The notes under the pieces: model-generated | What the model was told of the DNA's origin: nothing | Seen by the model: the letters and a program-made list of their open reading frames with translations, nothing else | Databases searched by the model: none | DNA from: Actinomycetota bacterium | GTDB taxonomy: Bacteria > Actinomycetota > Actinomycetes > Actinomycetales > Microbacteriaceae | Assembly (NCBI GenBank): GCA_051751085.1 | Contig: JBNJKM010000001.1 | Span: 135,314-199,313, forward strand | DNA: 64,000 bases | Reading direction: 5' to 3' | Shown: positions 9,359 through 64,000 of the stretch, piece by piece | Numbering within the stretch: position 1 is the stretch's first letter | How the letters are laid out: each line of letters starts with the position of its first letter | Translations under genes and position numbers: made by a program

Positions 9359-9404
9359 GGTTTCAACTCGCTCTGCGCTCTTCGCGCGCGGAGCGGCTCA
9401 ACCA
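9358..9404. repeat. REP-like element (family 1, GGTCTCGA...TCGACC type), variant copy
   Basis: TGGTTTCAACTCGCTCTGCGC...GCGCGGAGCGGCTCAACCA aligns with the copies at 11557 and 14284. Confidence 0.7.
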
Positions 9405-9409
9405 GCGGG

Positions 9410-10120
9410 TCAGCGCATCTGCTCGTGGATGCGCTGGGCGATGAGGGCGAGGCCCTCCTCGTTGGGGTGGAGCTCGTCGGAGGCGATGAGGTCCGGGCGG
9501 TCGAGGAACATGTCGCCGAGGTCGATGTACTCGGCGCCGACACGCGTCGCCTCTCGCTCGACCTGCTCGCGGAGGGTGATCAGCTCATCCGGTGTCGGCC
9601 CGTCGTCCCAGAGCGGTGACGTGACCACGAGACGCGCCGTCGGCAGCTGGCGGCGCAGCTCCGTGTAGAAGGTGACGACCGCCGGTTCGAGGTGCGACCG
9701 GTTGAGGTCGTTGCGGCCGCCCGAGACGATGACGATGTCGGGGTTGGCTTCGGCCGCCGCCGGCAGCATGCCGACGTAGGAGGTGCAGCCGGACTGCGGG
9801 CAGAGGCCGTCGGGCCGGCCCGTGGAGTAGCCGGTGCCGGCGATCGCCAGGTTCTGCACGCTCCAGCCGCGCAGCTCACCGAGGATGGCCGGGAAGCCGG
9901 TGCCGCTCAGCGAGGTGCCGGTGCCGACCGTGTAGGAGTCGCCGATGAAGACGGCGGTGGGCCGGGAGTCGCCGGGGGTGCTCGAAGCGCTGAGCTCGGC
10001 GATCGAAGGGCTCGCTGTCGGCGTCGGTGCGGGGGAGCGGGGCCAGAGGACGATGGCGGCCACGATCGCGACCACGAGCACCGTGACCGTGGTCGCGATG
10101 ACTGCCGTGCGGCGGGTCAT
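9410..10120 (-). CDS. Exported SGNH/GDSL hydrolase family protein
   Basis: FIGDSYT block I, GGRND block III, DELHPN block V; N-terminal transmembrane/signal segment. Confidence 0.88.
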   Translation of the reverse strand: MTRRTAVIATTVTVLVVAIVAAIVLWPRSPAPTPTASPSIAELSASSTPGDSRPTAVFIGDSYTVGTGTSLSGTGFPAILGELRGWSVQNLAIAGTGYSTGRPDGLCPQSGCTSYVGMLPAAAEANPDIVIVSGGRNDLNRSHLEPAVVTFYTELRRQLPTARLVVTSPLWDDGPTPDELITLREQVEREATRVGAEYIDLGDMFLDRPDLIASDELHPNEEGLALIAQRIHEQMR

Positions 10121-10130
10121 GGGCTCAGGC

Positions 10131-10173
10131 TGGTCTCGATACGCGGGCGGCTTCGCCGCCTGCTACTCGACCA
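10131..10173. repeat. REP-like element (family 1)
   Basis: TGGTCTCGATACGCGGGCGGCTTCGCCGCCTGCTACTCGACCA, with internal hairpin and a CTAC (GTAG) tag. Confidence 0.8.
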
Positions 10174-11509
10174 CCGGCGGAGGAGTGAGCAAGGCCCTGA
10201 CCGCCTCCAGCGGGACCGTCACCCAGGTGGGGCGGTTGCGCAGCTCGTAGACGACCTCGTAGAGGGCCTTGTCGAGCAGCAGCGCGACGAAGACGGGGTC
10301 GGATTCATCGACCCGACCTGCAGCAGCCGCGTAGCCAGCGAGGAACTCGGTGCGGCGCTCGAAGACCCAGTCGCCCGCTGCGGCGCCGTCGGCCTCCGGC
10401 AGCTCCTGCAACGCAGAGCCTGCCGCGTAGTCGAACGACCGCAGCATGCCGACGACATCGCGCAGGCGCGGCTCGCGCACCATGCGCTCGTGCATAGGCC
10501 GCAGCGGCTCGCCCTCGAAGTCGAGCAGCAGCCAGCGGCCGTCCGCGCCGCGCAACACCTGGCCGAGGTGCAGGTCACCGTGGATCTGCTGCAGCTGGCC
10601 GAGGTGCTGCACCTCGCGCAGCCGGTCGGCCGCCGCCTGCAGCTCGTCCTGCAGGTCGCCGAGCACATCGTGGGCCTCCTGCCGCGCCCACGCCATGCGC
10701 TGCTCGAGGCCGGTGATGAAGCGCAGCGTGTCGGCCTCGTCGGCCTCGACGGTGCCCATCGCCTGTGCGAGGTCGCGATGCACGATCGCGACCGCCTCGC
10801 CGAGCGCTCGCGCGTCGGGCGCCCCGCCGGCGTCCTCGCCCCGCAGGGTCGCGAGGGCGTGCTGCCGGAACAGCTCCCACGCATCCTCGCCGCCCGCGAC
10901 GAACTCCGAGACCGCGAGCAGGTGCCCGGTCACGAACGCGTCGCCCGCGGGCCAGCCGGCCAGCACCGAGGCGAGCAGGTGCGGGATGCGGTCGCAGCCG
11001 GCCTTCGTCAGGGCGCCGGTGACGACCACGTCGGGGTTGTCGCCGGGTGCGACGACGCGGAAGACCTTGGCGATCCAGCTGCCGTCGCCGCCGATGATCG
11101 AGGTGTTCGACTGCTCGCCGGTGATCACGCGGATGTCGCCCGCGGGCGCCGGGTCGGCGGTGGCGTCACCGTCGAGGCCGTTGACCGCCCGCCTGCCGGT
11201 GGCGACGTCGAGGAGAGCCTGCACGGCATCCGCATCGCCGCACGCGTCGACGAGCCAGCGGTCGCCGAGCTGCGCGATGGGGGAGCCGCCCGGCTCGTCG
11301 CGCCACGCGACCGGCACCTGCAGCAGCGTGTCGCCGGCGCGCAGCAGCAGGATGGCGGCGTCGCCGAGGTCGTAGCTCGTCTCGAGGCTCACGTCGACCC
11401 GCTGGCCCTTCAACGGGTACCAGCGGGTGGTGGGCATCCACGCGGTGATGGCGTCGATGACGGATGCGTCGGTGAGGGCGGGAGCGTCGGTCGGAGTGGG
11501 GTCGCTCAT
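10163..11509 (-). CDS. mak: Maltokinase (Mak/Pep2; aminoglycoside phosphotransferase fold)
   Basis: EQSNTS, IHGDLHLGQVL, LLDFEGEP, RDVVGMLRSFDYA, LDKALYEVVYE.RNRP.W. Confidence 0.85.
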   Translation of the reverse strand: MSDPTPTDAPALTDASVIDAITAWMPTTRWYPLKGQRVDVSLETSYDLGDAAILLLRAGDTLLQVPVAWRDEPGGSPIAQLGDRWLVDACGDADAVQALLDVATGRRAVNGLDGDATADPAPAGDIRVITGEQSNTSIIGGDGSWIAKVFRVVAPGDNPDVVVTGALTKAGCDRIPHLLASVLAGWPAGDAFVTGHLLAVSEFVAGGEDAWELFRQHALATLRGEDAGGAPDARALGEAVAIVHRDLAQAMGTVEADEADTLRFITGLEQRMAWARQEAHDVLGDLQDELQAAADRLREVQHLGQLQQIHGDLHLGQVLRGADGRWLLLDFEGEPLRPMHERMVREPRLRDVVGMLRSFDYAAGSALQELPEADGAAAGDWVFERRTEFLAGYAAAAGRVDESDPVFVALLLDKALYEVVYELRNRPTWVTVPLEAVRALLTPPPVVE

Positions 11510-13216: not shown

Positions 13217-14194
13217 CTACTCGGCCGCGGGCACCGTCGCGGGGTTGTCGACCGACGCGACCCGCGCTGCCGGGCGGCGTGAGGGCATCCGTCGGAGCAC
13301 CGCACGCACGACCAGCCAGGCGACGATGGCCAGCACCGCGAGGAGCACGAGCGCCGGCAGTGCCTGCCCGAGCGCGAAGAGCGCCGCAGCGCCCCAGGCG
13401 AGGAAGGCGCCCCATCCGGCGACCAGACCGTCCCAGAAGCTCGGCGTGCCCGTCGGCCCCTCGACCGTCGTAGAGCTGATGCGCACCTCGATCGTCGACA
13501 TCGCGACCTGGTCGGTGAGCGAGCGCTGCTGCGACATGAGCTGCTCGAGCTCGGACGTGCGATCGGTGAGCTGCGCCTCGACCTCGAGCAGCGTCTCGGT
13601 GTCGGCCGCGGTGGTCTGCAGCTCGGTGAGCCGGTCGACGGATGCGCGGCTCGCGTTGACGCGCACCTCCAGGTCGCGCACCTGGTCGGTGACGACCTCC
13701 TCGCCGAGGTCGACGCTCGTCACGTCGCCGAGCGCGCGCAGCGCCGTCAGGAGATCCTCGACCTGCGCGGCCGGCACGCGCACGGTGAGCATCGCCCATG
13801 CCGGCTGGAAGTCGGTCGACGCGCCCTCGGCCCGACGGTCGATCGAGCCGCCGCGGGACTGCGCGGCGTCGCTCACCGCATCCGCCATCTGGATCGGGTC
13901 GCCGACGCGCATGCTGAGGTTGCCGGAGATGATGACGGCGCGGTCCTCGTCGGCCGCTTCGGCGGGGACGTCGTCGCTCCCGCCCATGTCGCCGCCGGCC
14001 GATTCCTCGTTGCCGGGCTGCGGGGCCGCCTCGGGCTCGCCGGCCCAGTCGGGGAGGCCGCCGCTCTCCGTGAAGGGCGCAGGTTGGCCGATGCCGGGAG
14101 CGGGCGCTTGGGATGCGCTCATCGCGCCGCAGCCGGTGAGGAGGACGGTGCCGGCGATGACGATGCCGGCCATCGAGAGGTGTCTGCGGGTCAT
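13217..14194 (-). CDS. DUF4349-type lipoprotein with C-terminal transmembrane segment
   Basis: LLTGC lipobox, LTVRVPA, EDVT-like EVVTDQVRDL, coiled coil, C-terminal transmembrane segment. Confidence 0.8.
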   Translation of the reverse strand: MTRRHLSMAGIVIAGTVLLTGCGAMSASQAPAPGIGQPAPFTESGGLPDWAGEPEAAPQPGNEESAGGDMGGSDDVPAEAADEDRAVIISGNLSMRVGDPIQMADAVSDAAQSRGGSIDRRAEGASTDFQPAWAMLTVRVPAAQVEDLLTALRALGDVTSVDLGEEVVTDQVRDLEVRVNASRASVDRLTELQTTAADTETLLEVEAQLTDRTSELEQLMSQQRSLTDQVAMSTIEVRISSTTVEGPTGTPSFWDGLVAGWGAFLAWGAAALFALGQALPALVLLAVLAIVAWLVVRAVLRRMPSRRPAARVASVDNPATVPAAE

Positions 14195-15327: not shown

Positions 15328-16335
15328 TCAGTCGCCGCGCTTCGCCGCCTTCGCCTCGGCTTTGGCGGCGCGAAGCTCCGCCTTCGCCGCGGTCCGCGCC
15401 GCGGCCGCCGCGTCGCGCGCCTCGATGGCCTGCAGCCGCTCGACGGCGTTGGCCACCGCATCCGCCGCCTTCGCCTCGGCCTGCCGCAGACGGCCGCGCG
15501 CCTCGTCGACGAGCTTCGCGGCGTCGCGCACCTGCTTGTCGTTGACGATGGCCGTGGGCATGCGCTCGAGCAGCTCGTCGGGCTCGTTGCGCTCGAGCCA
15601 GCGCTCGATGCCGTCGAACAGCCGCGAGAGGCCGAAGCCGAAGCCGCTGCCGTCGTCTTCGACGTCGCTCCGCTCGAAGACGCCCGCGCGCACGGCGGGT
15701 GCGAGCAGTGGGAACCGCTCGTCGGTCACGAGCTCGGGCAGCGCCCGCCGCACGGCATCGTCGACGAGGGCGTCGCTCGACGCCTTCGAGTAGAGGGCGA
15801 TGTAGCCGAGCAGCAGCCGCAGCGTCGGCAGCTTCATGGTGTCGGGCGCGGGCACGCCCTCGAGCGCGGCGAGGCCGGCCTCGATGATGGCGAGCCGGTT
15901 GGGGGTCGTGGGGGTCGAGCTCGGCGGCAGGTCGGCGAGCCAGGGGTGCGCGTCGTACGCCGCCCGCACGAAGACCGCCCACTCGCGCAGCCGCTCGCGC
16001 CACGTGCTGCCGGCGCCGGGCACGGTCACCTCGCTCGCCGTGTCGTACATGAGCAGCAGCAGGCCGTCCTTGCCGGTCACGTAGCGGTAGAGCGACATCG
16101 GTGCGACCCCGACGGCCGCGGCGACCTTGCCCATGCTCACGGCCTCGAGCCCCTCGGCGTCGGCGAGCTCGATCGCCGCCTCGACGATCTGCTCGGTCGT
16201 CAGCTCCCGCTTCGGGCCGCGGTGCGGCAGCTCGGCGACGCCCCACGTCACCGCGTGCGCGTGCGGCAGGTCGGGGACGTGCTCCGGATGGTCGAGATGG
16301 TCGGGCGGGTTCGTCACGGGTGCCTCGTCGCTCAC
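15328..16335 (-). CDS. TetR/AcrR family regulator with long C-terminal Ala/Lys/Glu coiled-coil tail
   Basis: HTH IVEAAIELADAEGLEAVSMGKVAAAVGVAPMSLYRYV; GTGA overlap with the upstream reductase. Confidence 0.88.
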   Translation of the reverse strand: MSDEAPVTNPPDHLDHPEHVPDLPHAHAVTWGVAELPHRGPKRELTTEQIVEAAIELADAEGLEAVSMGKVAAAVGVAPMSLYRYVTGKDGLLLLMYDTASEVTVPGAGSTWRERLREWAVFVRAAYDAHPWLADLPPSSTPTTPNRLAIIEAGLAALEGVPAPDTMKLPTLRLLLGYIALYSKASSDALVDDAVRRALPELVTDERFPLLAPAVRAGVFERSDVEDDGSGFGFGLSRLFDGIERWLERNEPDELLERMPTAIVNDKQVRDAAKLVDEARGRLRQAEAKAADAVANAVERLQAIEARDAAAAARTAAKAELRAAKAEAKAAKRGD

Positions 16336-17159
16336 TGGCGGTCGTCGGGATGGGTGCCGGTGCGCTCGCCGGTCTCGAGCGCCGCGATCGCGGCCATGTC
16401 GTCGTCGCTCAGCGTGAAGCCGTCCACGTCGAGGTTCTCCCGGAGGCGGTGCGGATGCGTCGACTTGGGGATCAGGGCGCCACCGAGCTGCAGATGCCAG
16501 CGGATGATCGCCCGCGCGGGGCTCACGCCGTGAGCGGCTGCGATCCGCCCGATGACCGGATCCTCGAGCACGCGCGAGCGACCGAGCGGGCTCCACGCCT
16601 GCGTGACGATGCCGTGCTCGGCGTGGAATGCGCGCAGCTCGTGCTGCGGCAGCCACGGGTGCGACTCGACCTGGTTGACGACCGGCGTCACTCCTGTCTC
16701 GTCGATGAGGCGCCGGATGTGCTCCTCGGTGAAGTTCGAGACGCCGATCGAGCGGATGCGCCCCTCGCCCTGCAGCGCGATGAGCTCGCGCCACACGTCG
16801 ACGTACTGCCCGCGCGCCGGGCGCGGCCAGTGAATCATGTAGATGTCGACGGGGGAGCCGAGCGCGGCCTCGCTGGCCGCGAACGACGCGCGCACCGCAT
16901 CCGCCGACTGGCTCTCGTCGCCCCAGAACTTGCTCGTGACCGTGAGGCTCGCTCGGTCGAGGCCTGCGTCGACCGCGCGGCGGATCGACTCGCCGACCTC
17001 GCGCTCGTTGCCGTAGAACTCAGCGCCGTCGACCAGCGCGTAGCCGGCCTCGAGAGCGGCGGCCACGACGGCCGGCGTCTCGTCGGCCGGCACCTTGTAG
17101 AGACCGAACCCGAGCGCGGGGAGCGTGCGGCCGTCGAGCAGGGGCAGGGTGGAGGGCAC
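16332..17159 (-). CDS. Aldo/keto reductase (2,5-DKG reductase-like)
   Basis: GFGLYKV, DGAEFYGNE, TSKFW, MIHWP, SIGVSNF, AWSPLG, IPKS. Confidence 0.93.
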   Translation of the reverse strand: MPSTLPLLDGRTLPALGFGLYKVPADETPAVVAAALEAGYALVDGAEFYGNEREVGESIRRAVDAGLDRASLTVTSKFWGDESQSADAVRASFAASEAALGSPVDIYMIHWPRPARGQYVDVWRELIALQGEGRIRSIGVSNFTEEHIRRLIDETGVTPVVNQVESHPWLPQHELRAFHAEHGIVTQAWSPLGRSRVLEDPVIGRIAAAHGVSPARAIIRWHLQLGGALIPKSTHPHRLRENLDVDGFTLSDDDMAAIAALETGERTGTHPDDRQ

Positions 17160-17241: not shown

Positions 17242-17802
17242 TCAGCCGGCGGGCGTCGTCGGCTGCGCGTGGCGCCAGCCGTCGGGCCCGAGCCGGTACT
17301 CGATGCGCACGTGCTTGCGGTCGTGGGTCGCCTGCAGGAACTCGAAGCGCGTGGGCTGCAGCGCCCAGACGACCCAGTCGGGGTTGGGTCGGCCGTCGTA
17401 GTTGGGCCGCCGCATCCAGTCGTCGACCGCGGCGGCAGGGCCGAGGTCGACGACCGTGCCGGTGATCTCCACCTGGCGGCCGAGCGGACGCCAGAAGAGC
17501 AGCGCCGTCGCGACCGGGCGCGCGGCGAGGTGCGCGGCCTTCCGCGAGCCGCGCGACGAGGAGAAGTGGATGCCGCGCTCGTCGACATCCTTGACGATGA
17601 GGGTGCGGCTGGTCGGCTCGCCCTCGTCGCCGGTCGTCGAGAGCGTGAAGGCGCTCGGCTGCCGCTCGCCGCTCGCGATCGCGTCGTCGAGCCATCCGGT
17701 GAAGAGCTGCAGCGGATGCGTCGGCGCGGCATCCGGGTCGAGCGTCGTCAGGACGTCGGGGAAGGTCGGCAGCGCGCGGAGGCGCTCGCGGAGTTGGCTC
17801 AC
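17242..17802 (-). CDS. Pyridoxamine 5'-phosphate oxidase family protein (short PdxH-like)
   Basis: AFTLST, SRTLIVK, LFW.PLGRQVEI.G, EFLQ....RKH.RI.Y. Confidence 0.8.
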   Translation of the reverse strand: MSQLRERLRALPTFPDVLTTLDPDAAPTHPLQLFTGWLDDAIASGERQPSAFTLSTTGDEGEPTSRTLIVKDVDERGIHFSSSRGSRKAAHLAARPVATALLFWRPLGRQVEITGTVVDLGPAAAVDDWMRRPNYDGRPNPDWVVWALQPTRFEFLQATHDRKHVRIEYRLGPDGWRHAQPTTPAG

Positions 17803-19214: not shown

Positions 19215-20222
19215 GTGACGGAGACCACTGGCAACGAGCCGACCGGCACCGCGCCCGACCGCAGCGGCCCCGTCGGCCCGGTCGACGCATCCGTCGTGCC
19301 CCGCTACGCGGGCATCGCGACCTTCGCGCGGCTGCCGCGCATCGAGGACGTGCCGCGCGCCGACGTCGCCGTCGTGGGCGTGCCGTTCGACACGGGCGTC
19401 AGCTACCGGCCGGGCACGCGCTTCGGGCCGTCGCACGTGCGCGAGTCGTCGCGGCTGCTGCGGCCGTACAACCCCGCGCAGGACGTGTCGCCGTTCGCGG
19501 TCGCGCAGGTCGTCGACGCGGGCGACTTCCCCGTGAACCCGTTCGACATCCAGGAGGCGGTGCTCGAGGTCGAGCGCGCCGCGACCGAGCTCGGCGAGCG
19601 GGCGACGCGGATCGTGACGATCGGCGGCGACCACACGATCGCGCTGCCGCTGCTGCGCGCGGTCGCGAAGCAGCACGGGCCGGTCGCGGTGCTGCACTTC
19701 GACGCGCACCTCGACACCTGGGACACCTACTTCGGTGCGCCCGTCACGCACGGCACGCCCTTCCGGCGCGCGAGCGAGGAGGGGCTCATCGACCTCACCG
19801 CGAGCTGCCACGTGGGCACGCGCGGGCCGCTGTACTCGAAGCAGGACCTCGAGGACGACGAGCGGCTCGGCTTCTCGATCGTCTCGAGCGAGTACGTCGA
19901 GGAGCGCGGCGCCGAGGCGGCGATCCAGCGGATGCGCGACCGCATCGGCGACAAGCCGCTCTACATCTCGGTCGACATCGACGTGCTCGACCCCGCGCAC
20001 GCGCCCGGCACGGGCACGCCTGAAGCTGGTGGGCTGACGAGCCGCGAGCTGCTGCGGATGCTGCGGAGCCTGGGCGACAAGCACATCGTGGGCGCCGACG
20101 TCGTCGAGGTGTCGCCCGCGTACGACCACGCGCAGATGACCGGCATCGCTGCGAGCCACGTCGTCTACGAGCTCGTGACGCTGCTGGCGGCGCAGGCGGG
20201 GCGGATGCGCGAGGCCGAGTAG
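19215..20222 (+). CDS. speB: Agmatinase / guanidinobutyrase (ureohydrolase)
   Basis: GGDHT, HFDAHLD, SHGT-like [21 protein letters not shown]; exact substrate cannot be told from sequence. Confidence 0.88.
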
Positions 20223-26155: not shown

Positions 26156-26244
26156 CCGACCATTCTCCCGTGCCGGGCTGTGCCTGCGCACCGCGCCCAC
26201 CGCATCCGCCGTCGCCCGTCCCCGTCGCCCCCCCCGCTCTCGAT

Positions 26245-43911: not shown

Positions 43912-45905
<1,994 letters not shown>

Positions 45906-45921
45906 CCGCGACCGCGCGCAT

Positions 45922-48096: not shown

Positions 48097-48175
48097 GTCG
48101 CCCCGCTCCCGCACTCTCCACAAGCAGGCGGATGCGTCGCACGCGCGAGCACCCGCCTCTGCCATCGTGCGGGCC

Positions 48176-48598
48176 ATGGAGCGATCGATCACCGACGATG
48201 CCGAGTCCTACGTGCGCGGCCTGCTCGACGAGTGGCTCGCGCCGCTCGTGGGCGAGTGCCTCGCCTGCTACCTCGACCGCGTGCTCGAGTACCAGGAGTG
48301 CGACGGCAGCCTGCGGTTCGCGAAGCACTACCGCGACCTCGCCGCGCCCCGCGCGACGCGCGTCGAGCAGCGGCTCGAGGCGAGCGGCGGCTTCTGCGAC
48401 TGCGAGGTGCTCGCCAACGTGGTGCAGCCGGCATGGCACCTGTGGACGACGAGCCGCGAGGTCGACGTCGACGGCCAGTCGATCGTGCTCGAGGCCGAGC
48501 CGCCGGACGGCATGCCGCCGTGCGCGGGCGTCCGGCGCGGCTCGACGCAGCCGTGCGTGCACTGGCACCGGATGCGGCGGCCCCGGATGCCGTACTGA
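48176..48598 (+). CDS. DUF2695-like Cys-rich protein
   Basis: ECL.CY, GGFCDCEVL.N, CAGVRRGSTQPC. Confidence 0.7.
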   Translation: MERSITDDAESYVRGLLDEWLAPLVGECLACYLDRVLEYQECDGSLRFAKHYRDLAAPRATRVEQRLEASGGFCDCEVLANVVQPAWHLWTTSREVDVDGQSIVLEAEPPDGMPPCAGVRRGSTQPCVHWHRMRRPRMPY

Positions 48599-50950: not shown

Positions 50951-52675
50951 TCAGGGCCAGGTCGGCGGCCAGAACCGCAGCCGCATGAGCTCGGGCGGCA
51001 GCGGGATGCCGTAGGCGACCGGCAGGTACCAGACGGCGACGACGATGCTCGTCACGACGAGGAGCGCGACGATCGACCACGCGGCCGCGCGCCACTCCAC
51101 GTCGTCCGCCGGCTCGCCACCGGCCGAGGCAGCGGTCGAGGGTGTGCCCGGGCCCGCGGCCGCGGGCAGCGGCGGGATCGCCGCCGCGACGTCCGCGTCG
51201 ATGGGCGGCACCGCATCCGCTCGCACGGCAGGCACCCGCGACCGCAGCCCGACGAGCTGCTGCAGCGCGAGGGCCAGCCCGATCACGAGGAACGGCAGGA
51301 AGACGATCGCGTAGAAGAAGAAGATCGTGCGGTCGGGGAACAGCAGCCACGGCCCGTAGCCGGCGGCGATCGCGACGAGCAGGAATCCCGCGCGGCGGTC
51401 GAGCGTGCGGCCGAAGTGGAAGAGCAGGAAGCCGAGCGCGAGCACCGCGGCGTACCAGACGAGCAGGTTGGGGAGCGCGGTGATCCACCAGGCGCCGTCT
51501 CCGACCGCCATCGTCTTGAAGCCGGTCGGGCGGCCGAGCCACAGCCACTCGATCGCGGGGGACTGGTAGGCGTGGTCGTTCGACAGCCCCACGTGGAAGC
51601 CCAGCTGCTGCGCGTGGTACGCCCACAGCGACTGGAGTCCGAGCGGCACCCAGGCGAGCAGCCCGCCCCAGCGCAGGTCGGCGCGCTCGAGCATGAGCTG
51701 CGAGCCCCAGCCGCCGTCGAACCAGCCGGCGAAGCTCGCGACGTAGACGACGAGGGCGGGCCCGACGAGCAGCACGAGGCTCGTCGGCGCCTGCGTGAGC
51801 AGGGTTCCGATCCACGGGTGCCGGTAGCCGGCGCGGCGCCGGTCGAGCGCATCGAGCGCCACGATCCACAGCCCGAAGAGCGCCAGGAACGCGGCGCCCG
51901 ACCACTTCGTCGCGCAGCCGGCGCCGAGCAGCACGCCCGCGACGAGGATCCACGGGCGGTTCCACATGGCGGCGCCGAAGCGTCGCGGCTTGTCGGCGAG
52001 CGCCCGCACGGTGCGCGCGGGGGAGCCCCGCCGATCGAGCAGCAGCGCCCCGGCGCCGGCGAGCACGAAGACCGCGAGGATCCCGTCGAGCAGCGCCGTG
52101 CGGCTCATCACGATCGCGAAGCCGTCGATCGCCAGCCAGAAGCCGGCGAGCGACGCGAACGCGACCGACCGCAGCACCCCGCGCGCGACCGCGTAGGTGA
52201 GGCCGACGAGCGCGATGCCCGCGAGCGCGCTCGGCAGCCGCCACCAGGAGGGGTCCGTCATGCCGAACACGGCCATCGCCATGCCGATGAGCCACTTGCC
52301 GAGCGGCGGGTGCACGACGTAGTCGGCGTCGGTCGAGAGCGCGCCCGGGTCGCCGGCCTCGAAGCGCTCGTTCGCCGTCTCACCCCACTCGCCCTCGTAG
52401 CCGAGCTGCCACATCGACCAGCCCTCCTTGACGTAGTACGTCTCGTCGAAGACGAGGAGGTGCGGATGCCCGAGGCCGACGAGCCGCGCGACGGCGGCGA
52501 GGCCGACGATGGCGACCGGCGCGGCGATCTCGATGCGGCGGCGGATGCGCGGCTCGGCCAGGCGGCGCTCGAGCGACCCGTACGCATCCGTGAGCCGCTC
52601 GAGGCGAGGCCGGGAGGTGGCCGCGGATGCTGTCCCGCCGTCGAGCGCGGGGTCGGCGTCGCGCTGCAGGGTCAC
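50951..52675 (-). CDS. pmt: Dolichyl-phosphate-mannose--protein mannosyltransferase (GT39)
   Basis: VFDETYY.KE, VVHPPLGKW, SRTALLDG, GCATKWSG, H.YQS, RTIFFFY; GAGAAT 7 nt before the GTG. Confidence 0.92.
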   Translation of the reverse strand: MTLQRDADPALDGGTASAATSRPRLERLTDAYGSLERRLAEPRIRRRIEIAAPVAIVGLAAVARLVGLGHPHLLVFDETYYVKEGWSMWQLGYEGEWGETANERFEAGDPGALSTDADYVVHPPLGKWLIGMAMAVFGMTDPSWWRLPSALAGIALVGLTYAVARGVLRSVAFASLAGFWLAIDGFAIVMSRTALLDGILAVFVLAGAGALLLDRRGSPARTVRALADKPRRFGAAMWNRPWILVAGVLLGAGCATKWSGAAFLALFGLWIVALDALDRRRAGYRHPWIGTLLTQAPTSLVLLVGPALVVYVASFAGWFDGGWGSQLMLERADLRWGGLLAWVPLGLQSLWAYHAQQLGFHVGLSNDHAYQSPAIEWLWLGRPTGFKTMAVGDGAWWITALPNLLVWYAAVLALGFLLFHFGRTLDRRAGFLLVAIAAGYGPWLLFPDRTIFFFYAIVFLPFLVIGLALALQQLVGLRSRVPAVRADAVPPIDADVAAAIPPLPAAAGPGTPSTAASAGGEPADDVEWRAAAWSIVALLVVTSIVVAVWYLPVAYGIPLPPELMRLRFWPPTWP

Positions 52676-53979: not shown

Positions 53980-55530
53980 ATGCCCGAGCGCTTCACCGTC
54001 ACGACGCCGATCTACTACGTCAACGACGTGCCGCACATCGGGCACGCCTACAACGAGGTGGCCACCGACGTGCTCGCGCGCTGGCACCGGATGCGCGGCG
54101 ACGCCACGTGGATGCTCACCGGCACCGACGAGCACGGGCAGAAGATCATGCGCACCGCCGCGGCGAACGGCGTGAGCCCGCAGGAGTGGACCGACCGGTT
54201 GGTCGAGACCGCCTGGATCCCGCAGCTCGAGCTGCTGAACATCGCGAACGACGACTTCATCCGCACGACCGACGAGCGCCACAAGGTGGGCGTGCGCATC
54301 TTCCTCGAGCGGCTCAGGGAGGCCGGGTACATCTACCACGGCGAGTTCGAGGGCCAGTACTGCGTCGGCTGCGAGGAGTACAAGACGCCGAACGACCTCG
54401 TGCCGGGAACGGGCGAGTTCGAGGGCCAGCTCGTGTGCGCCATCCACTCCCGCCCGATCGAGACGGTGCGCGAGGCGAACTACTTCTTCAAGCTGTCGGA
54501 GTTCGGCGACCGGCTGCTCGCGCTCTACGACGAGCGCCCCGACTACGTGCAGCCCGAGCACGTGCGCAACGAGGTGCGGCAGTTCGTGAAGCAGGGCCTC
54601 AACGACCTGTCGATCAGCCGCAACACCTTCGACTGGGGCATCAAGGTCCCGTGGGACGAGACGCACGTCGTCTACGTCTGGTTCGAGGCGCTCCTCAACT
54701 ACATCACCGCCAACGGCTACGGCGTCGACGACGAGCAGTTCGAGCGCCGCTGGCCCGCGACCCACATCGTCGGCAAGGACATCGCGCGCTTCCACGCGGT
54801 CATCTGGCCCGCGATGCAGATGGCGGCCGGCCTCGAGATCTCCGACCACGTCTTCGGACACGGCTGGCTGCTCGTCGGCGGCGAGAAGATGTCGAAGTCG
54901 AAGGCGACCGGCATCGAGCCGCGTCAGATCACCGAGGTGTTCGGCGTCGACGCCTTCCGCTACTACTTCATGTCGGCGATCGCGTTCGGCTCCGACGGCT
55001 CGTTCTCGTGGGAGGACCTCGACGCCCGCTACCACTCCGAGCTCGCCAACGGGCTCGGCAACCTCGCGAGCCGGGTCATCGCGATGGTGCACAAGTACTG
55101 CGACGGCGTCGTGCCGGCGGTGGATGCGGACGACGACATCCGAGCGCTCGTCGCGGATGCCGTGGGCCGCGCCGACCGCGCGATCGACCGGTTCGCGATC
55201 GACGAGGCCGTCGACGCGGCGATGTCGATCGTCGAGCGGCTGAACGGCTACATCACCGAGCAGGCGCCGTGGGTGCTCGCGAAGGACGAGGCGCAGCGCG
55301 ACCGGCTCGCGGCGGTGCTCGCCTCGAACGTGCACGGCATCGGCGCGGCGGCCATCCTGCTCGCGCCGATCATGCCCGAGTCGTCGCAGAAGCTGTGGTC
55401 GGCCGTCGGCGGCGAGGGCGACGTGCTCGCCCAGCCGATCCGCGAGGCCCACGCGTGGCAGGGCACGGGCCGCGTCTCGACCGTGCCGCCGCTGTTCCCG
55501 CGCATCGAGCAGGCGCAGCCCGCGGCCTGA
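53980..55530 (+). CDS. metG: Methionine--tRNA ligase
   Basis: HIGH, GTDEHGQK, CVGC/CAIH knuckle, YVWFEAL.NY, KMSKS. Confidence 0.97.
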   Translation: MPERFTVTTPIYYVNDVPHIGHAYNEVATDVLARWHRMRGDATWMLTGTDEHGQKIMRTAAANGVSPQEWTDRLVETAWIPQLELLNIANDDFIRTTDERHKVGVRIFLERLREAGYIYHGEFEGQYCVGCEEYKTPNDLVPGTGEFEGQLVCAIHSRPIETVREANYFFKLSEFGDRLLALYDERPDYVQPEHVRNEVRQFVKQGLNDLSISRNTFDWGIKVPWDETHVVYVWFEALLNYITANGYGVDDEQFERRWPATHIVGKDIARFHAVIWPAMQMAAGLEISDHVFGHGWLLVGGEKMSKSKATGIEPRQITEVFGVDAFRYYFMSAIAFGSDGSFSWEDLDARYHSELANGLGNLASRVIAMVHKYCDGVVPAVDADDDIRALVADAVGRADRAIDRFAIDEAVDAAMSIVERLNGYITEQAPWVLAKDEAQRDRLAAVLASNVHGIGAAAILLAPIMPESSQKLWSAVGGEGDVLAQPIREAHAWQGTGRVSTVPPLFPRIEQAQPAA

Positions 55531-56827: not shown

Positions 56828-57781
56828 ATGCCTGCGAGCCCCGACGGAACCGTGCCCATCCCTGACGTCGCCAGCCGCCTCGGCGAGGCCCCGCGCGGGA
56901 CGACGCTGCCGGGCGGCGAGTACATCCGCGAGCGGTTCGACGACGGCAAGCGCGACACGACGAGGCCGCCCGAGCCAGAGCCGCTCGGCGTGCCGATCTA
57001 CGACAACCACACGCACCTCGAGATCAAGGACGGCGAGGACTTCCCCTACTGGGCGGCGCTCGACGCGGCCGAGCGGGCGGGGGTCGTCGGCGTCATCCAG
57101 GTCGGCGGCGACGTCGAGTCGTCGGAGTGGTCGGCCTCGCTCGCGGCGCAGGATCGACGGGTGCTCGCGGCCGTCGCGCTCCACCCCAACGAGGCGCCCG
57201 GCTACGCCGACGCGGGCACGCTCCCCGACGCCCTCGCGACCATCGACGCGCTCGCCGCGCAGCCGCGCGTGCGCGCGATCGGCGAGACGGGGCTCGACTT
57301 CTTCCGCACCGGAGACGAAGGGCGGCACGCGCAGTTCGAGTCGTTCGAGGCGCACATCGAGATCGCGAAGCGGCACCGTCTCGCGCTGCAGATCCACGAC
57401 CGGGATGCGCACGACGCGGTGGTCGAGACGCTCCTGCGGGTGGGCGCGCCCGAGACGACCGTCTTCCACTGCTTCTCCGGCGACGAGCACCTCGCCCGCG
57501 TCGCGGCGGAGCACGGCTGGTACCTCTCGTTCGCCGGCACCGTCACCTTCTCGAACGCCCGCAACCTGCACGCGGCGCTCGCGGTCGCCGACCGCAGCCG
57601 CATCCTCGTCGAGACGGATGCGCCGTTCCTCACGCCCGCGCCGCACCGCGGTCGCCCGAACAGCCCGTACCTGACGCCGGTCACCGTGCGCGCCATGGCG
57701 GAGCGGCTCGGCGTCGACGCCGACGAGCTCGCGGCCGAGACGGCCGAGAACACGCTGCGCGCCTACGGCAGCTGGGACTGA
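56828..57781 (+). CDS. tatD: TatD family hydrolase
   Basis: DNHTHL, ALHPNE, IGETGLD, IHDR.AH, FHCFSG, LVETDAPFL.P. Confidence 0.94.
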   Translation: MPASPDGTVPIPDVASRLGEAPRGTTLPGGEYIRERFDDGKRDTTRPPEPEPLGVPIYDNHTHLEIKDGEDFPYWAALDAAERAGVVGVIQVGGDVESSEWSASLAAQDRRVLAAVALHPNEAPGYADAGTLPDALATIDALAAQPRVRAIGETGLDFFRTGDEGRHAQFESFEAHIEIAKRHRLALQIHDRDAHDAVVETLLRVGAPETTVFHCFSGDEHLARVAAEHGWYLSFAGTVTFSNARNLHAALAVADRSRILVETDAPFLTPAPHRGRPNSPYLTPVTVRAMAERLGVDADELAAETAENTLRAYGSWD

Positions 57782-57790: not shown

Positions 57791-58357
57791 TCAGCCCGCC
57801 GGCTCGATGTCGACGGTCACGCCGTCGCCGTCGGCGAGCCCGTCGATCCGCGCCGTCATGATGGCGGCGCTGCCCTCGGTCGGCAGCGTGAACTCCCAGC
57901 CGAAGACCGCGAGGTCGGCCGGGCAGTCGCCCTCGCCCTCCGGCTCGTCGAAGTCGATCTCGAGCCGGTCGCCCTCGATCTCGACGTCGTCACCGGTGGG
58001 CTGGCACTCCGGGCTGCTGCTGCCGGCGGAGAAGACGCGCACGGTCGAGAAGCCGTCGCCCCACACGACGACCGGCGCGGTCGACACGGTCACGGGGTCC
58101 CACGCATCCAGCTGGGCGGCATCGGCGATCCGAGTCGCGCGGTCGTCGTCGTCCTGGGTGGCGGATGCGCTCGGCTCGGCCGACGTCGAGGGCGACGGCG
58201 AGGTCGACTCCTCAGGGGACGCGGACGAACCGGGTTCCGCCGGGCTCATGCTCGGCGCCGGATCGGGCGTGATCGAGGGCGTGCTCGACGCGCAGCCCGC
58301 CAGGGCTGCGACGCCGATGGCGGCGATGGTGATCGTCAGGGGCTGGATGCGGCGCAC
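57791..58357 (-). CDS. Lipoprotein, family B, member 2
   Basis: LAGC lipobox, W...GSSSPECQP...CPADL...WEFTLP; GAGGAG before the GTG. Confidence 0.78.
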   Translation of the reverse strand: MRRIQPLTITIAAIGVAALAGCASSTPSITPDPAPSMSPAEPGSSASPEESTSPSPSTSAEPSASATQDDDDRATRIADAAQLDAWDPVTVSTAPVVVWGDGFSTVRVFSAGSSSPECQPTGDDVEIEGDRLEIDFDEPEGEGDCPADLAVFGWEFTLPTEGSAAIMTARIDGLADGDGVTVDIEPAG

Positions 58358-59561: not shown

Positions 59562-60515
59562 GTGAGCATCGACAGCCAGGCCGGCGACACCCGACCCGGT
59601 ACCGGCAGGGGCAGCCTCGAGTCGCTGCTCGGGCCGACCGAGATCCGCGCGCTCGCGTCGACCCTCGACCTCACCCCCACGAAGCGCTGGGGCCAGAACT
59701 TCGTCGTCGACGCGAACACCGTGCGCCGCATCGTGAAGATCGCGGATGTCGCCGGTCGCGACGTCGTCGAGGTCGGACCGGGTCTCGGCTCGCTGACGCT
59801 CGGGCTGACCGAGGTCGGCGCGCGGGTCGCGGCCGTCGAGATCGACGCGCGGCTCGCGGAGCTGCTGCCGAGGACCGTGGAGCGGAAGCAGCCCGACGCG
59901 AGGCTCGAGGTCGTGCAGCACGACGCGCTCACGATCGAGTCGCTGCCCTTCGCGCCGCAGGCGCTCGTCGCGAACCTGCCCTACAACGTCTCCGTGCCCG
60001 TGCTCATCCACCTGCTCGAGCGGTTCCCGACGATCGACCGGGCGCTCGTGATGGTGCAGTCCGAGGTCGGCCACCGGCTCGCGGCGCCGCCCGGATCGAA
60101 GGTGTACGGCTCGCCGAGCGCGAAGGTCGCATGGTGGGGCCAGTGGGGGCTCGAGGGCGACGTGTCGCGGCAGATCTTCTGGCCGGTGCCCAACGTCGAC
60201 AGCGTGCTCGTCGGCTTCCGCCGCGGCCCGTCGCGGGGCGACGAGGCGCTGCGGCGGCGCACCTTCCGGGTGATCGACGGCGCCTTCGGCCAGCGCCGCA
60301 AGATGCTGCGGCAGGCGCTCTCGGGCGTCTTCGGCTCGTCGGCGGCCGCGACCGAGGTGCTCGAGCGCGCCGGCGTCGCGCCCACGCTGCGCGGCGAGGC
60401 GCTCGACCTCGACGACTTCATCCGCATCGCCGAGGCCGCGCCTGGGGGCGTCGCCGGCCCGGACGCATCCGCCGCCGACGCATCCGCCGTGCCGGACGCA
60501 TCCGCGGAGCACTGA
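59562..60515 (+). CDS. rsmA: 16S rRNA (adenine1518/1519) dimethyltransferase
   Basis: PTKRWGQNFV.D, EVGPGLGSLT, VANLPYNVS, MVQ.EV, FGQRRKMLR. Confidence 0.96.
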   Translation: MSIDSQAGDTRPGTGRGSLESLLGPTEIRALASTLDLTPTKRWGQNFVVDANTVRRIVKIADVAGRDVVEVGPGLGSLTLGLTEVGARVAAVEIDARLAELLPRTVERKQPDARLEVVQHDALTIESLPFAPQALVANLPYNVSVPVLIHLLERFPTIDRALVMVQSEVGHRLAAPPGSKVYGSPSAKVAWWGQWGLEGDVSRQIFWPVPNVDSVLVGFRRGPSRGDEALRRRTFRVIDGAFGQRRKMLRQALSGVFGSSAAATEVLERAGVAPTLRGEALDLDDFIRIAEAAPGGVAGPDASAADASAVPDASAEH

Positions 60516-61045
60516 TGGTCGACCGCATCGACCGCACCATGGGGCCGGCCGCGATGCGCGCCGCGACCGGTCGCGACCACGAGGCGTGGCGCGACCTGCT
60601 CGAGGCGGCCGGCGCGCTCGAGTGGAGCCATCGGCAGATCGCCGACTGGCTGGTCGCCGAGCACGGCGTCGAGCCGTGGTGGGCGCAGGGGATCACGGTC
60701 GACTTCGAGCAGGACCGCAAGGGCAGGATGCCGGGCCAGCAGCCCGACGGCTCGTTCTCGGTCGCGCGGACGCGCACGGTGCCGGGGGAGCGGCTCGCGG
60801 CGCTCGCTGCGGTGCGCGCGGCGATCGAGGAGCGCCACGGCCCCGCGCACGGCGAGAACCTCGCCGCCGCGCAGCCGGTCGTGCGGTGGCGACTGGGCGA
60901 CGGGACGCGCCTCACGGCCGCCGCGCAGCAGCCGAACGCGACGGGCACGCCCGTGAGCCTCACGGTGCAGAAGCTCGCGGATGCGTCGGCGATGGACACC
61001 GCGAAGGCCGAGATCGCCGCGATCTTCGACGCCGTCGCGGGCTGA
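60515..61045 (+). CDS. DUF4287-like hypothetical protein
   Basis: ATGRD...W...L, WL..EHGV..WWAQ.ITV.FEQ. Confidence 0.65.
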   Translation: MVDRIDRTMGPAAMRAATGRDHEAWRDLLEAAGALEWSHRQIADWLVAEHGVEPWWAQGITVDFEQDRKGRMPGQQPDGSFSVARTRTVPGERLAALAAVRAAIEERHGPAHGENLAAAQPVVRWRLGDGTRLTAAAQQPNATGTPVSLTVQKLADASAMDTAKAEIAAIFDAVAG

Positions 61046-61049
61046 GCCC

Positions 61050-61448
61050 TCAGCCGTCGGGCGAGCGCGCGTCGAGCTCGGCCGCGAGGCGGCGCGGCGC
61101 CGTGACGCGGAAGGATGCGTCGAGCAGCTCGGCCACGCGCGCCCAGTCGGCGGCGTCGAGGTCGACCGCGATCCAACCGCTCGGCGCGAGGTAGGCGGGC
61201 TCGATCGCGCCCTCCTCGAGCATTGCGAGCCGCTCGTCGGGCTCGAGCAGCACGCTCAGGTGGTGCGGGTGCTGCAGCCACTCGCCGTCGCGCTTCGTCG
61301 AGCAGCCGAAGTAGGCGAAGACCTTCTGGGTGAAGAACGCGGGCCGCCCGTGCGAGACCTTCTCGGCGGCACCGGGGAGCGCGAGCGCGAGCGCGCGGAC
61401 GCGCGCGAGCACCGGGTCGTCGTCGTCGAACATCGGCGGATGCGCCAT
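61050..61448 (-). CDS. MmcQ/YjbR family protein
   Basis: [35 protein letters not shown]. Confidence 0.85.
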
Positions 61449-61512
61449 GGCCGCGAGAGTAGCGCTGCCCGTGCGACAGGAGCACCCTGCGGCGCGCACT
61501 AGGTTGGTTGCC

Positions 61513-62445
61513 GTGGTGCGCGGAACTCAGAGGAGCACGGTGCGGGCGAAGGCGCCCGGCAAGATCAACGTGCACCTGGGCGTGGGCGCGCTGCAGGACG
61601 ACGGCTACCACGACGTCGCGACCGCCTACCAGGCCGTGAGCCTGCACGAGCTCGTCGAGGCGACCGAGGCCGACGACTTCTCGGTGCGCTTCTCGGGACC
61701 GGTGCCGCACGACCACCTCTCCACCGGCGCCGACAACCTCGCGATCCGCGCTGCGATGGCGCTCGCCCGGCGCGGTCGCGTGACCGGCGGCGTGGCGCTC
61801 TCGATCGAGAAGCACGTGCCGATCGCCGGCGGCATGGGCGGCGGCAGCGCGGATGCGGCGGCGACGCTCGTCGCGTGCGACGAGCTGTGGGGGCTGCACC
61901 TGGGGCGCGAGGCGCTGCACGAGATCGGCCGGGAGCTCGGCGCCGACGTGCCGTTCGCGCTCGCGGGCGGGACCGCCGTCGGCACGGGCCGCGGCGACCG
62001 GCTGACGCCCGCGCTCGCGCGCGGCCAGTTCCACTGGGTGCTCGCCTACGCCGAGGCAGGCCTCTCGACCCCGGACGTCTACCGGGCGCTCGACGAGCAC
62101 CGCGCCGTGCACGCGGCCGACATCGCGCCCGCGCACGACGTGCCGACGGTGGATGCGCGGGTGCTGCAGGCGCTCCGCGCCGGCGACCCGTCGATGCTCG
62201 CCGAGGTGCTCCAGAACGACCTGCAGGCGCCGGCGCTGCGGCTCATGCCGCGGCTGGCCGGCACGCTCGAGCTGGGGGAGCGCTCCGGCGCGCTCGCGGG
62301 CATCGTCTCCGGCTCCGGCCCGACCGTCGCCTTCCTGTGCGACGGCGTCGAGTCGGCGCTGGAGGTGCGCGAGCGCCTCGCGGCGGCCCAGCTCACGGCG
62401 GTCAAGGTGACCGGCCCGGTGCCCGGCGCCCGCCTGATCGACTGA
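61513..62445 (+). CDS. ispE: 4-diphosphocytidyl-2-C-methyl-D-erythritol kinase
   Basis: [43 protein letters not shown]. Confidence 0.95.
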
Positions 62446-62587
62446 GCCGACCGCATCCGCCCGTCCGTCCCGTGAGGGGCGCCTCCGGCATGTGACCGGC
62501 GTCCTCTGCGAGTGCGTGGCGTCACTCAGGTGCGAGCGGCACCGGCCCTCGGCGCGGCGCTCGCCGCGCGTGCGGGAGGATGGAGGC

Positions 62588-64000
62588 ATGGCTCATCTTC
62601 TGGGCGCCGAACGCGTCGGCGTCGCGTTCCCCACGCGCACCGTGTTCGAGTCGATCTCGCTCGGCCTCGAGGACGGCGACCGCATCGGCATCGTCGGCCG
62701 CAACGGCGACGGCAAGTCGACCCTGCTGCGCGTGCTCGCCGGCAGCCTCGAGCCGACGAGCGGCCGCGTCACGCGCCGCGGCGGCCTGCAGGTCGGCGTG
62801 CTCGACCAGCGCGACACGCTCGACCACGAGATGACGATCAGCGAGGCCATCGTCGGCGACCGGCCCGAGCACGAGTGGGCGGGGGATGCGCGCATCCGCG
62901 ACCTGCTCGCCGGCCTCGTGGGCGACCTCGACTGGCACGGCCGCATCGGCGACCTCTCCGGCGGCCAGCGCCGCCGCGTCGCGCTCGCGCAGCTGCTCGC
63001 GGGCGACTGGGACGTGCTCTTCCTCGACGAGCCCACGAACCACCTCGACGTGCAGGGCATCGCCTGGCTCGCCGACCACCTCAACGCCCGCTACGCGACC
63101 GGCCGCGGCGCCTTCGTGGCCGTCACGCACGACCGGTGGTTCCTCGATGCGGTCTGCACCGGCACGTGGGAGGTGCACGACCAGCTCGTCGAGCCCTTCG
63201 AGGGCGGCTACGCCGCCTACGTGCTGCAGCGCGTCGAGCGCGACCGCATGTCGGCCGCGAGCGAGGCGAAGCGCCAGAACCTCATGAAGAAGGAGCTCGC
63301 GTGGCTCCGTCGCGGCGCGCCCGCCCGCACCGCGAAGCCGAAGTTCCGCATCGACGCGGCGACGCAGCTCATCGAGGACGAGCCGCCCGTGCGCGACCCG
63401 ATCCAGCTCGCGCAGCTCGCCGCGACCCGCCTCGGCAAGGACGTCGTCGACGTCGTCGACGTCTCCGTCGAGCTCGGCGGCCGCACGATCCTCGACGACG
63501 TCACGTGGCGCATCGCGCCCGGCGAGCGCGCCGGCGTGCTCGGGCGCAACGGCGCCGGCAAGTCGACCCTGCTCGCGCTCATCGCCGGACGCATCCGCCC
63601 CACGACGGGCCGCGTGAAGACCGGCAAGACGGTGAAGATCGCCGAGCTGACGCAGGAGCTCTCCGAGCTCGAGCAGCACGAGGACGACCCGGTGCGCACC
63701 GTGGTCGCCAACCTCAAGACGAGCTACGCCTCCGGCGGCAAGGAGCTCACGCCCGGCCAGCTGCTCGAGAAGCTCGGCTTCCGCTCCGGCGAGCTCTCCA
63801 CGCCCGTCAGGGACCTCTCGGGCGGTCAGCGCCGCCGCCTGCAGCTGCTGCTCATCCTGCTGGACGAGCCGAACGTGCTCATCCTCGACGAGCCCACGAA
63901 CGACCTCGACACCGACATGCTCGCCGCGATGGAGGACGTGCTCGACTCGTGGGCCGGATGCCTCATCGTCGTGAGCCACGACCGCTACCTCATCGAGCGC
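62588..64000 (+). CDS. ABC-F family ATP-binding protein (Uup-like), truncated by the window end
   Basis: GRNGDGKST, LSGGQRRR, LDEPTNHLD; second ABC domain GRNGAGKST, LSGGQRRR, LDEPTNDLD. Confidence 0.93.
   Translation, partial: MAHLLGAERVGVAFPTRTVFESISLGLEDGDRIGIVGRNGDGKSTLLRVLAGSLEPTSGRVTRRGGLQVGVLDQRDTLDHEMTISEAIVGDRPEHEWAGDARIRDLLAGLVGDLDWHGRIGDLSGGQRRRVALAQLLAGDWDVLFLDEPTNHLDVQGIAWLADHLNARYATGRGAFVAVTHDRWFLDAVCTGTWEVHDQLVEPFEGGYAAYVLQRVERDRMSAASEAKRQNLMKKELAWLRRGAPARTAKPKFRIDAATQLIEDEPPVRDPIQLAQLAATRLGKDVVDVVDVSVELGGRTILDDVTWRIAPGERAGVLGRNGAGKSTLLALIAGRIRPTTGRVKTGKTVKIAELTQELSELEQHEDDPVRTVVANLKTSYASGGKELTPGQLLEKLGFRSGELSTPVRDLSGGQRRRLQLLLILLDEPNVLILDEPTNDLDTDMLAAMEDVLDSWAGCLIVVSHDRYLIER

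Follow-up and report, generated by a model that had tools for sequence, protein, structure and literature searches.

Abundance and short-range strand alternation of an octamer in Agrococcus, a possible strand-specific recombination signal

The stretch of 64,000 nucleotides analysed here (the window, C1:135314-199313 of the draft genome G000 of Agrococcus, Microbacteriaceae; 2.72 Mb, 72.3% GC) raises the question of why one short asymmetric word, the octamer CGGATGCG, recurs so often in it. A sequence-only reading of this DNA had counted about 60 copies by hand and judged them to be in roughly ten-fold excess. Exact matching on both strands finds 66 copies, 34 on the plus and 32 on the minus strand, of which 64 are located between 9400 and 64000 (1.17 per kb), in all reading frames as well as in intergenic DNA. 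As described below, this is a genuine iterated word at the DNA level that overrides codon usage, its close neighbours alternate between the strands, and it may possibly act as a strand-specific recombination signal.

Excess of the octamer over null models

A simple composition model for positions 9400-64000 gives an expectation of about 4.7 copies (hand calculation from GC values), and dinucleotide-preserving shuffles of the window give 13.6 ± 4.2 copies with a maximum of 22, none of 100 shuffles reaching 66. The excess in the window is therefore about 14-fold on the first model and about 5-fold on the second, and the earlier observation is confirmed. Genome-wide, 1925 copies are present (955 plus, 970 minus; about one per 1.4 kb), compared to 233 expected from a Bernoulli model and 591, 535 and 412 from Markov models of orders 1, 2 and 3. 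The observed-to-expected ratios for Markov orders 1 to 5 are 3.3, 3.6, 4.7, 2.7 and 1.7, and at order 3 CGGATGCG is the most enriched of all octamers with at least 200 copies.

Genes were called crudely through the periodicity of GC content at third codon positions, which yielded 1751 open reading frames covering 75% of the genome. These contain 1455 copies of the word, against 370 ± 17 when synonymous codons are shuffled within genes, 229 under whole-codon permutation and 669 under a dicodon chain. It should be mentioned that the dicodon chain already takes up six of the eight bases; an excess of 2.2-fold (z about 30; 1.9- to 2.7-fold per frame) survives this dicodon-preserving null. Measured against the synonymous shuffle, every one of the six frames has an excess, from 1.5- to 21-fold, and the nine highest-ranking of all octamers in that comparison overlap CGGATGCG. 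Copies are balanced between the sense and antisense strands of genes (700 and 755). The intergenic DNA (84 kb, in short segments) holds 78 copies, or 0.92 per kb, against 14-17 expected, which places the word first among 840 words of the same composition, whose median is 6.

The possibility that codon, dipeptide or oligonucleotide usage produces the excess as an artefact was considered. The lowest frame, CGC-ATC-CGx (Arg-Ile-Arg), consists of favoured codons and is only 1.5-fold above the synonymous null, as an artefact would predict. However, the excess is present in six frames and in intergenic DNA, stands out against the same-composition controls, and is missing from sister families of equal GC content. 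The synonymous shuffle, the whole-codon permutation, the dicodon chain and the intergenic counts rule the artefact out, and its probability is practically negligible. In our reading, the word acts at the DNA level and not via proteins, RNA or methylation.

Codon contexts agree with the shuffles and the intergenic counts. It had been noticed that GAT and GCA appear against codon preference where they complete the word, and the codon counts bear this out. GAT makes up 13.3% of the Asp codons overall and 79% in the context xCG-GAY-GCG, while GCA makes up 5.7% of the Ala codons overall and 55% in the context C-GCN-TCC-G. Where CGGATGCG gets completed, CAT rises from 12% to 53% and GGA from 5% to 39%. 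One fifth of the GAT codons of the genome are contained in GGATGC.

Within the octamer, the central GGATGC is strict and the outer C and G are merely preferred, the outer-base variants NGGATGCG and CGGATGCC being still enriched about 2-fold and 2-fold, respectively. The two single-base variants that are palindromes, CGCATGCG and CGGATCCG, are depleted (0.68x). No conservation was found in the flanks beyond a weak G at -1/-2, intergenic copies included, so the word is not a repetitive extragenic palindromic (REP) element or a miniature inverted-repeat transposable element; hairpins and extended complementarity were not found either. The octamer forms part of the Escherichia coli REP consensus (…GCCGGATGCGGCG…), which accounts for the prevalence of E. 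coli papers among the literature matches; the overlap is probably a coincidence because the copies in G000 have no REP-like flanks. On the whole, the copies are spaced much as in a Poisson process (median gap 970 bp, 969 expected), with no excess of close inverted pairs and no inverted terminator pairs. Separately, a second tier of octamers based on GCAGC/GCTGC (GCAGCTGC, CTGCAGCA and GCAGCAGC) is about 3-fold enriched under the synonymous-shuffle null, and this tier may be a codon-pair effect.

Orientation of the copies

Neighbouring copies of CGGATGCG are found preferentially on opposite strands. At distances of 50-200 bp, 61 pairs are on the same strand and 128 on opposite strands (32% same, z -4.9); the numbers are 160 and 241 at 200-500 bp (40%, z -4.0) and 300 and 377 at 500-1000 bp (44%, z -3.0), and beyond 1 kb the same-strand share is 49-50%. 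The anti-correlation of orientation reaches about 0.75 kb. Total pair density is near Poisson, with same-strand pairs at about 0.72x and opposite-strand pairs at about 1.2x of expectation. Of the 217 asymmetric octamers that occur 1300 times or more, CGGATGCG has the lowest same-strand fraction at 50-500 bp (0.375), followed by an octamer that overlaps it (0.422), the remaining ones being at 0.473 or above. Within genes, the proportions of sense and antisense copies predict 50.1% same-strand pairs, but 130 pairs are same-strand and 222 opposite-strand (z -4.9); of the 217 octamers, the unrelated one that comes closest has a z of -1.5, and the median is +1.7. Since the other octamers do not have this deficit, it is not explained by 8-bp direct repeats being unstable in general. 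The full octamer shows the alternation most strongly, the hexamer core only weakly. The alternation is replicated in another Agrococcus species (G007, 400 kb; 37% same-strand, z -3.7) and in G132, which belongs to a different genus and has a dialect of its own (500 kb; 41% same-strand, z -4.4). Near opposite-strand copies have no extra complementarity outside the word, and hairpins or templated inverted duplication were rejected as their source on this ground.

The alternation points to a strand-specific reader with an effect that saturates locally. Same-strand repulsion combined with opposite-strand indifference would be expected if each copy worked in one orientation only, if both orientations were required throughout, and if a single copy per strand sufficed for a few hundred bases, as for a word read on a single strand or by a tracking enzyme. 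Two other explanations can be weighed against it here. In the first, a methylation-independent bias in repair or gene conversion replenishes the word neutrally, making it an absorbing state of mismatch correction with no function of its own. The similar enrichment in coding and intergenic DNA, the graded enrichment across genera and the retreat of the word in ribosomal operons, as for a weak genome-wide pressure, are compatible with such a bias. However, sites that are created independently should not interact with their neighbours, so the anti-correlation up to about 0.75 kb disfavours readings based on mutation or repair bias or on methylation-linked repair. There is also no conserved Vsr-type endonuclease, and a specificity of eight bases needs a dedicated protein, of which none is known. 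Neutral replenishment is therefore quite unlikely. In the second, the word is bound by an abundant protein of the nucleoid or of chromosome organisation, as proposed for the cyanobacterial HIP1. A duplex-binding protein predicts orientation-blind effects and gives no cause for strand-specific repulsion, which disfavours duplex-bound readings, and no family-specific DNA-binding protein was identified. Thousands of dispersed and conserved sites would suit such a protein, and HIP1 sites are likewise conserved beyond background and have been argued to serve chromosome structure (PMC5861425). On balance we consider this role very unlikely for CGGATGCG.

The GC skew of G000 is too weak to orient the replichores, and a scan for strand-heterogeneous octamers was used instead. 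The octamer CGGGGGAG is 98% polar, with 311 copies on and 5 off the local majority strand. It is one-sided over whole contigs, changing strand at about C3:200 kb and C8:80 kb, and every copy in the window is on one strand. It is one-sided as well in 400-500 kb of G007 (0/31) and of the other genus G132 (1/47). CGGGGGAG is a word of the type of FtsK-orienting polar sequences (KOPS) or architecture-imparting sequences (AIMS) that maps the replichores where GC skew fails. Relative to this compass, 51% of the CGGATGCG copies are co-oriented (809, versus 773 anti-oriented; z 0.9), and their strand heterogeneity (chi-square per degree of freedom) is 0.64, rank 2487 of 2495 words, versus 4.8 for CGGGGGAG. 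The KOPS-like role that had been considered for CGGATGCG and a replication-polar Chi are both rejected by this lack of polarity.

The regions and copies in the window are as follows.

1-9400, no strand, right end of a low-GC glycosyltransferase island (GC 62-67%), 2 copies
9400-64000, both strands, core-genome part, 64 copies by exact match
1507-1514, plus, exact copy in the island
7167-7174, minus, exact copy in the island
11461-11468, plus, exact copy
13639-13646, plus, exact copy
13877-13884, minus, exact copy
15457-15464, minus, exact copy
16452-16459, plus, exact copy
16753-16760, plus, exact copy
16896-16903, minus, exact copy
17713-17720, plus, exact copy
19286-19293, minus, exact copy
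19929-19936, plus, exact copy
20202-20209, plus, exact copy
24195-24202, minus, exact copy inside hrpA
26151-26158, minus, exact copy
26201-26208, minus, exact copy
27436-27443, plus, exact copy
28023-28030, plus, exact copy
28873-28880, minus, exact copy
29475-29482, plus, exact copy
30358-30365, plus, exact copy
31376-31383, plus, exact copy
31491-31498, minus, exact copy, opposite-strand neighbour of 31376 (115 bp)
32029-32036, minus, exact copy
32230-32237, minus, exact copy
32826-32833, plus, exact copy
33923-33930, minus, exact copy
34471-34478, minus, exact copy
36646-36653, plus, exact copy
36685-36692, plus, exact copy
37333-37340, plus, exact copy
38957-38964, plus, exact copy
40358-40365, minus, exact copy
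40494-40501, plus, exact copy, opposite-strand neighbour of 40358 (136 bp)
40786-40793, minus, exact copy
41121-41128, plus, exact copy
41330-41337, minus, exact copy
41737-41744, plus, exact copy
43381-43388, minus, exact copy
43414-43421, minus, exact copy
44183-44190, minus, exact copy
44627-44634, plus, exact copy
45917-45924, minus, exact copy
46198-46205, minus, exact copy
46310-46317, plus, exact copy
46603-46610, plus, exact copy
46980-46987, minus, exact copy
48129-48136, plus, exact copy
48569-48576, plus, exact copy
49107-49114, plus, exact copy
49804-49811, minus, exact copy
51212-51219, minus, exact copy
52542-52549, plus, exact copy
52583-52590, minus, exact copy
54088-54095, plus, exact copy
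57615-57622, plus, exact copy
58162-58169, plus, exact copy
60464-60504, minus, three copies 15 and 18 bp apart (starts 60464, 60479 and 60497) in D-A-S (GAC GCA TCC) repeats
60978-60985, plus, exact copy
61437-61444, plus, exact copy
61850-61857, plus, exact copy
62452-62459, minus, exact copy
62891-62898, minus, exact copy
63590-63597, minus, exact copy

The six consecutive copies from 40358 to 41744 alternate strictly between the strands. The example positions given in the sequence-only reading are all real, two of them being one base off (43380 and 57616, for true starts at 43381 and 57615), and the single copy it saw in the first 9-kb island becomes two in the first 9.4 kb, at 1507 and 7167. 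The three copies at 60464-60504 are in frame in the gene at 59562-60515 and build its C-terminal tail, which reads …PDASAADASAVPDASAEH. Only four places in the genome have three copies within 150 bp, three of which are tandem peptide repeats, and regulatory clusters were rejected accordingly. Tandem peptides written with the word are also seen at C5:185469 and C12:1651.

Distribution and candidate machinery

All 19 Agrococcus genomes carry 800-2500 copies of CGGATGCG, compared to 110-260 of a reversed control word, and in twelve sister families of the same order the ratio of word to control is about 1. In a set of 120 Microbacteriaceae genomes, this ratio lies between less than 1 and about 16. 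Counts of the core GGATGC separate two groups, 14 word-rich Microbacteriaceae genomes at 3.4-9.9x and 11 word-poor genomes at 0.7-1.9x, the latter being in the range of other families (1.0-2.2x). The genus of G132 uses the dialect CGGATGC(C/G), and other flanks are preferred around the core in Klugiella and Leifsonia loci. Judging from these sequence comparisons, CGGATGCG is the Agrococcus dialect of a Microbacteriaceae-wide hyper-abundant word with the core GGATGC. In G085, from another genus of the family, the octamer is present 47 times versus 160 for the control, GGATGC is at 0.69x, and GGATCC is rare as well (5 per 100 kb); this is a natural word-free lineage, and it possibly avoids the word actively. 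A full-text literature search found no iterated word, uptake sequence or Chi site described for Microbacteriaceae, only primers and E. coli REP matches for the raw octamer, and nothing relevant on transformation, or on Chi and AdnAB in Actinobacteria. As far as we have seen, four findings are new here: the dialect of Agrococcus, the absence of RecBCD throughout the family, the ruling out of methyltransferases and Vsr, and the alternation between strands.

The word had also been suggested to mark native versus foreign DNA. It is indeed far rarer in compositionally foreign DNA, with observed-to-expected ratios in 5-kb segments of 1.1-3.5x below 69% GC versus 8.4-9.8x in typical core DNA. The low-GC glycosyltransferase region extends over about 31 kb (C1:113-145 kb, 62-67% GC), starting about 22 kb upstream of the window (C1:113072-134912 for the upstream part), and is nearly free of the word. 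When corrected for composition, the island at 1-9400 has 2 copies versus about 8.8 expected at the enrichment of the core (Poisson P about 0.007, hand calculation), so that its density does not equal that of the core. In practice, CGGATGCG tells native from acquired DNA independently of GC content.

Some operons of normal GC content are without the word, namely ribosomal-protein/secY/adk (C2:100-105 kb) and secE-nusG-rplKA (C5:109-111 kb). Two adjacent genes of 1314 and 1024 codons at C5:168-176 kb are also free of it; they are probably rpoBC, an identity guessed from the gene sizes. The absence from ribosomal operons indicates that the pressure for the word gives way to strong coding and translational constraint. 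Uptake sequences likewise give way to coding constraint (PMC2817400). In four orthologous Agrococcus loci, 73, 57, 47 and 82% of the CGGATGCG sites of the window are kept, versus 48, 40, 34 and 48% for all octamers, in a small sample of relatives that are not independent of each other.

It had further been proposed that the target of a methyltransferase or restriction-modification system accumulates here in the manner of HIP1. The word contains the FokI-type (GGATG) and SfaNI-type (GCATC) type IIS sites, and G000 possesses a complete MmeI-family type IIL restriction-modification gene with all five MmeI Pfam domains (C11:36660-39476, outside the window). However, no conserved enzyme of the kind that this proposal calls for was found. 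In a profile search of 19 Agrococcus genomes, all carrying the word, the C5 methyltransferase family PF00145 was absent from G000 and 9 others, Vsr (PF03852) was absent from G000 and 12 others, and PF01555 (N6/N4) and PF02384 (N6) were absent from G000 and sporadic in the genus. Two of the genomes, G009 and G010, are without all three methyltransferase families, yet they have 2268 and 1309 copies of the word. A motif-IV regular expression detected only the MmeI-family gene in G000, the Dam-type and MT-A70 families not having been searched with hidden Markov models. The MmeI-family gene itself is in a word-free 9.2-kb stretch of 68% GC and was, for this reason, probably acquired recently. Moreover, the specificity of a restriction-modification system is not expected to be conserved across a whole family. 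Drive by 5-methylcytosine and very short patch repair is rejected by the lack of a C5 methyltransferase and of Vsr in G000, and an N6/N4 methyltransferase target by the lack of a conserved enzyme in Agrococcus. The proposal as a whole is highly improbable.

With regard to a Chi-like role, RecC (PF04257) is absent from 19 of 19 Agrococcus genomes and from 24 of 24 other Microbacteriaceae genomes of 17 other genera, and is present in 7 of 12 sister families. Microbacteriaceae appear to be without RecBCD, keeping only an AdnAB-like pair. A RecBCD Chi, one form of the role suggested earlier, is rejected because RecC is missing in all 43 genomes, and CGGATGCG may be a Chi for another helicase-nuclease. 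The AdnAB-like pair (PF12705) is formed by two neighbouring genes that are each about 1050-1150 codons long and encode a PDDEXK nuclease domain, and is found in 27 of 27 genomes, word-rich or word-free. We know of no Chi for AdnAB. ComEC (PF03772) is found in 54 of the 55 genomes searched, the sole miss being an Agrococcus assembly that is 63% complete. The comEA-comEC-holA locus is ordinary, which rejects an unusual ComEA-ComEC locus as the explanation. Because AdnAB and ComEC are both universal, a presence/absence link with the word is rejected for either; the pattern lends no support to the remaining readings and does not discriminate between them.

A strand-read signal and its comparison with known systems

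The reading that we tentatively favour, at somewhat less than an even chance, is that CGGATGCG is a strand-specific 'self' recombination signal, as a dialect of the Microbacteriaceae core GGATGC. It starts from direct observations (the word statistics, the distribution over the phylogeny, the readings excluded and the alternation between strands), from which we infer a reader and a link to recombination. The reader would be a conserved machine, acting on single strands or moving along the DNA, that recognises the word in one orientation. Family-wide, only two candidates for it were found, the AdnAB-type helicase-nuclease and the transformation apparatus ComEA/ComEC. A DNA end or an incoming fragment with a correctly oriented word would have a better chance of survival and recombination, and word-carrying alleles would be preferentially retained. 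The word would then be Chi-like in its mechanics and uptake-sequence-like in its genomic footprint. As either strand or end may be processed, both orientations would be needed everywhere, which would explain the absent replichore polarity. A second same-strand copy within a few hundred bases would add little, which would explain the local strand alternation.

Several points weigh against this reading. Word-free lineages and sister families have the AdnAB-like genes and ComEC too, and no reader was identified among the machinery searched. No comparable word was found in 100-kb samples of four sister families or of G085, a comparison of low power that counts against the reading because all of them have AdnAB or ComEC. 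We are not aware of any report of natural transformation in Microbacteriaceae, and the literature search did not find one either. The uptake sequence of Neisseria is read by a dedicated receptor, ComP, and known uptake sequences, at 9-12 bp, are longer than the 8-bp CGGATGCG. Deletion between close direct copies, if stimulated by the word, could produce the same-strand deficit. Finally, CGGATGCG is unpolarised, unlike known Chi sites, whose replication polarisation serves as a detection criterion (10.1101/2020.08.13.249359).

A classical DNA uptake sequence was considered as well, in which a surface receptor binds the double-stranded word and transformation acts as a molecular drive, as for the DNA uptake sequence (DUS) and the uptake signal sequence (USS). 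The equal strand use without polarity, the Poisson-like overall spacing, the genus-level dialects and the presence of ComEA-ComEC are consistent with this. So is the absence of the word from DNA of foreign composition, as genes without homologs are also without uptake sequences (PMC2817400). The density of one copy per 1.4 kb is comparable to that of USS and DUS, of which there are 1471 in Haemophilus influenzae and 1892 in Neisseria meningitidis, respectively (PMC2817400). However, a receptor for double strands would be orientation-blind, yet only same-strand neighbours are depleted (50-750 bp) and opposite-strand neighbours are at or above expectation. The word also has only 8 bp, without extended flanks or inverted terminator pairs, ComEC is equally present in word-free lineages, and competence is not known in Microbacteriaceae. 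Taken together, an uptake sequence of the classical kind is unlikely.

Hyper-abundant words are rare, and Chi, DUS/USS and KOPS each revealed a core DNA-handling machine. Returning to the strand-specific recombination signal, it is possible, if rather less than probable, that CGGATGCG is the first 'self' recombination signal in Actinobacteria, either as the long-sought Chi-type sequence of an AdnAB helicase-nuclease or as an uptake or transformation signal read on the single strand as it enters, with the alternation as a new computational signature. If true, strand alternation would separate strand-read from duplex-bound signals computationally. A word shared across Microbacteriaceae would point either to unsuspected natural transformation, with a preference for self DNA, in a large group of actinobacteria from soil, plants and water, or to a first sequence that controls the processing of breaks by AdnAB-type enzymes in a family without RecBCD. 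The word may help recombineering or transformation of Microbacteriaceae, and the word-free sister lineages are natural controls in a search for the reader.

The function of HIP1 (GCGATCGC, cyanobacteria) is still unsettled after long study (PMC5861425). CGGATGCG is similar to it in being a hyper-abundant octamer in and between genes that is conserved across genomes beyond background. The resemblance pointed out earlier thus holds for the iterated word and its conserved sites, but not for the accumulation of a methyltransferase target. HIP1 is palindromic and holds known methyltransferase targets, whereas CGGATGCG is asymmetric, has no conserved methyltransferase, and its palindromic neighbours CGCATGCG and CGGATCCG are depleted (0.68x). 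With KOPS and AIMS it shares the form of an asymmetric and abundant octamer. KOPS are defined by their polarity, however, and this part is filled by the 98% polar CGGGGGAG, CGGATGCG being unpolarised.

CGGATGCG resembles DUS of Neisseriaceae and USS of Pasteurellaceae as a short asymmetric word with thousands of copies, about one per kb, on both strands and without replichore polarity, present inside genes in several frames at a coding cost, missing from recently acquired DNA, and lineage-specific with dialects. It differs from them in its length (8 bp versus 9-12 bp plus flanks), in the lack of inverted terminator pairs, in its host, a Gram-positive actinobacterium without reported competence or receptor, and in the repulsion restricted to the same strand, which a double-strand receptor does not predict. 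Compared to the Chi sites of RecBCD and AddAB, CGGATGCG is unpolarised (51%), its successive sites share a strand less often than by chance, and its host family is without RecC (43 genomes), the sole conserved helicase-nuclease being AdnAB-like. On the other hand, like these asymmetric words of 5-8 bp, it ranks near the top of the over-represented octamers in the core genome and is depleted in foreign DNA, and reading in one orientation by a tracking enzyme, as for Chi, would explain its strand-specific local saturation.

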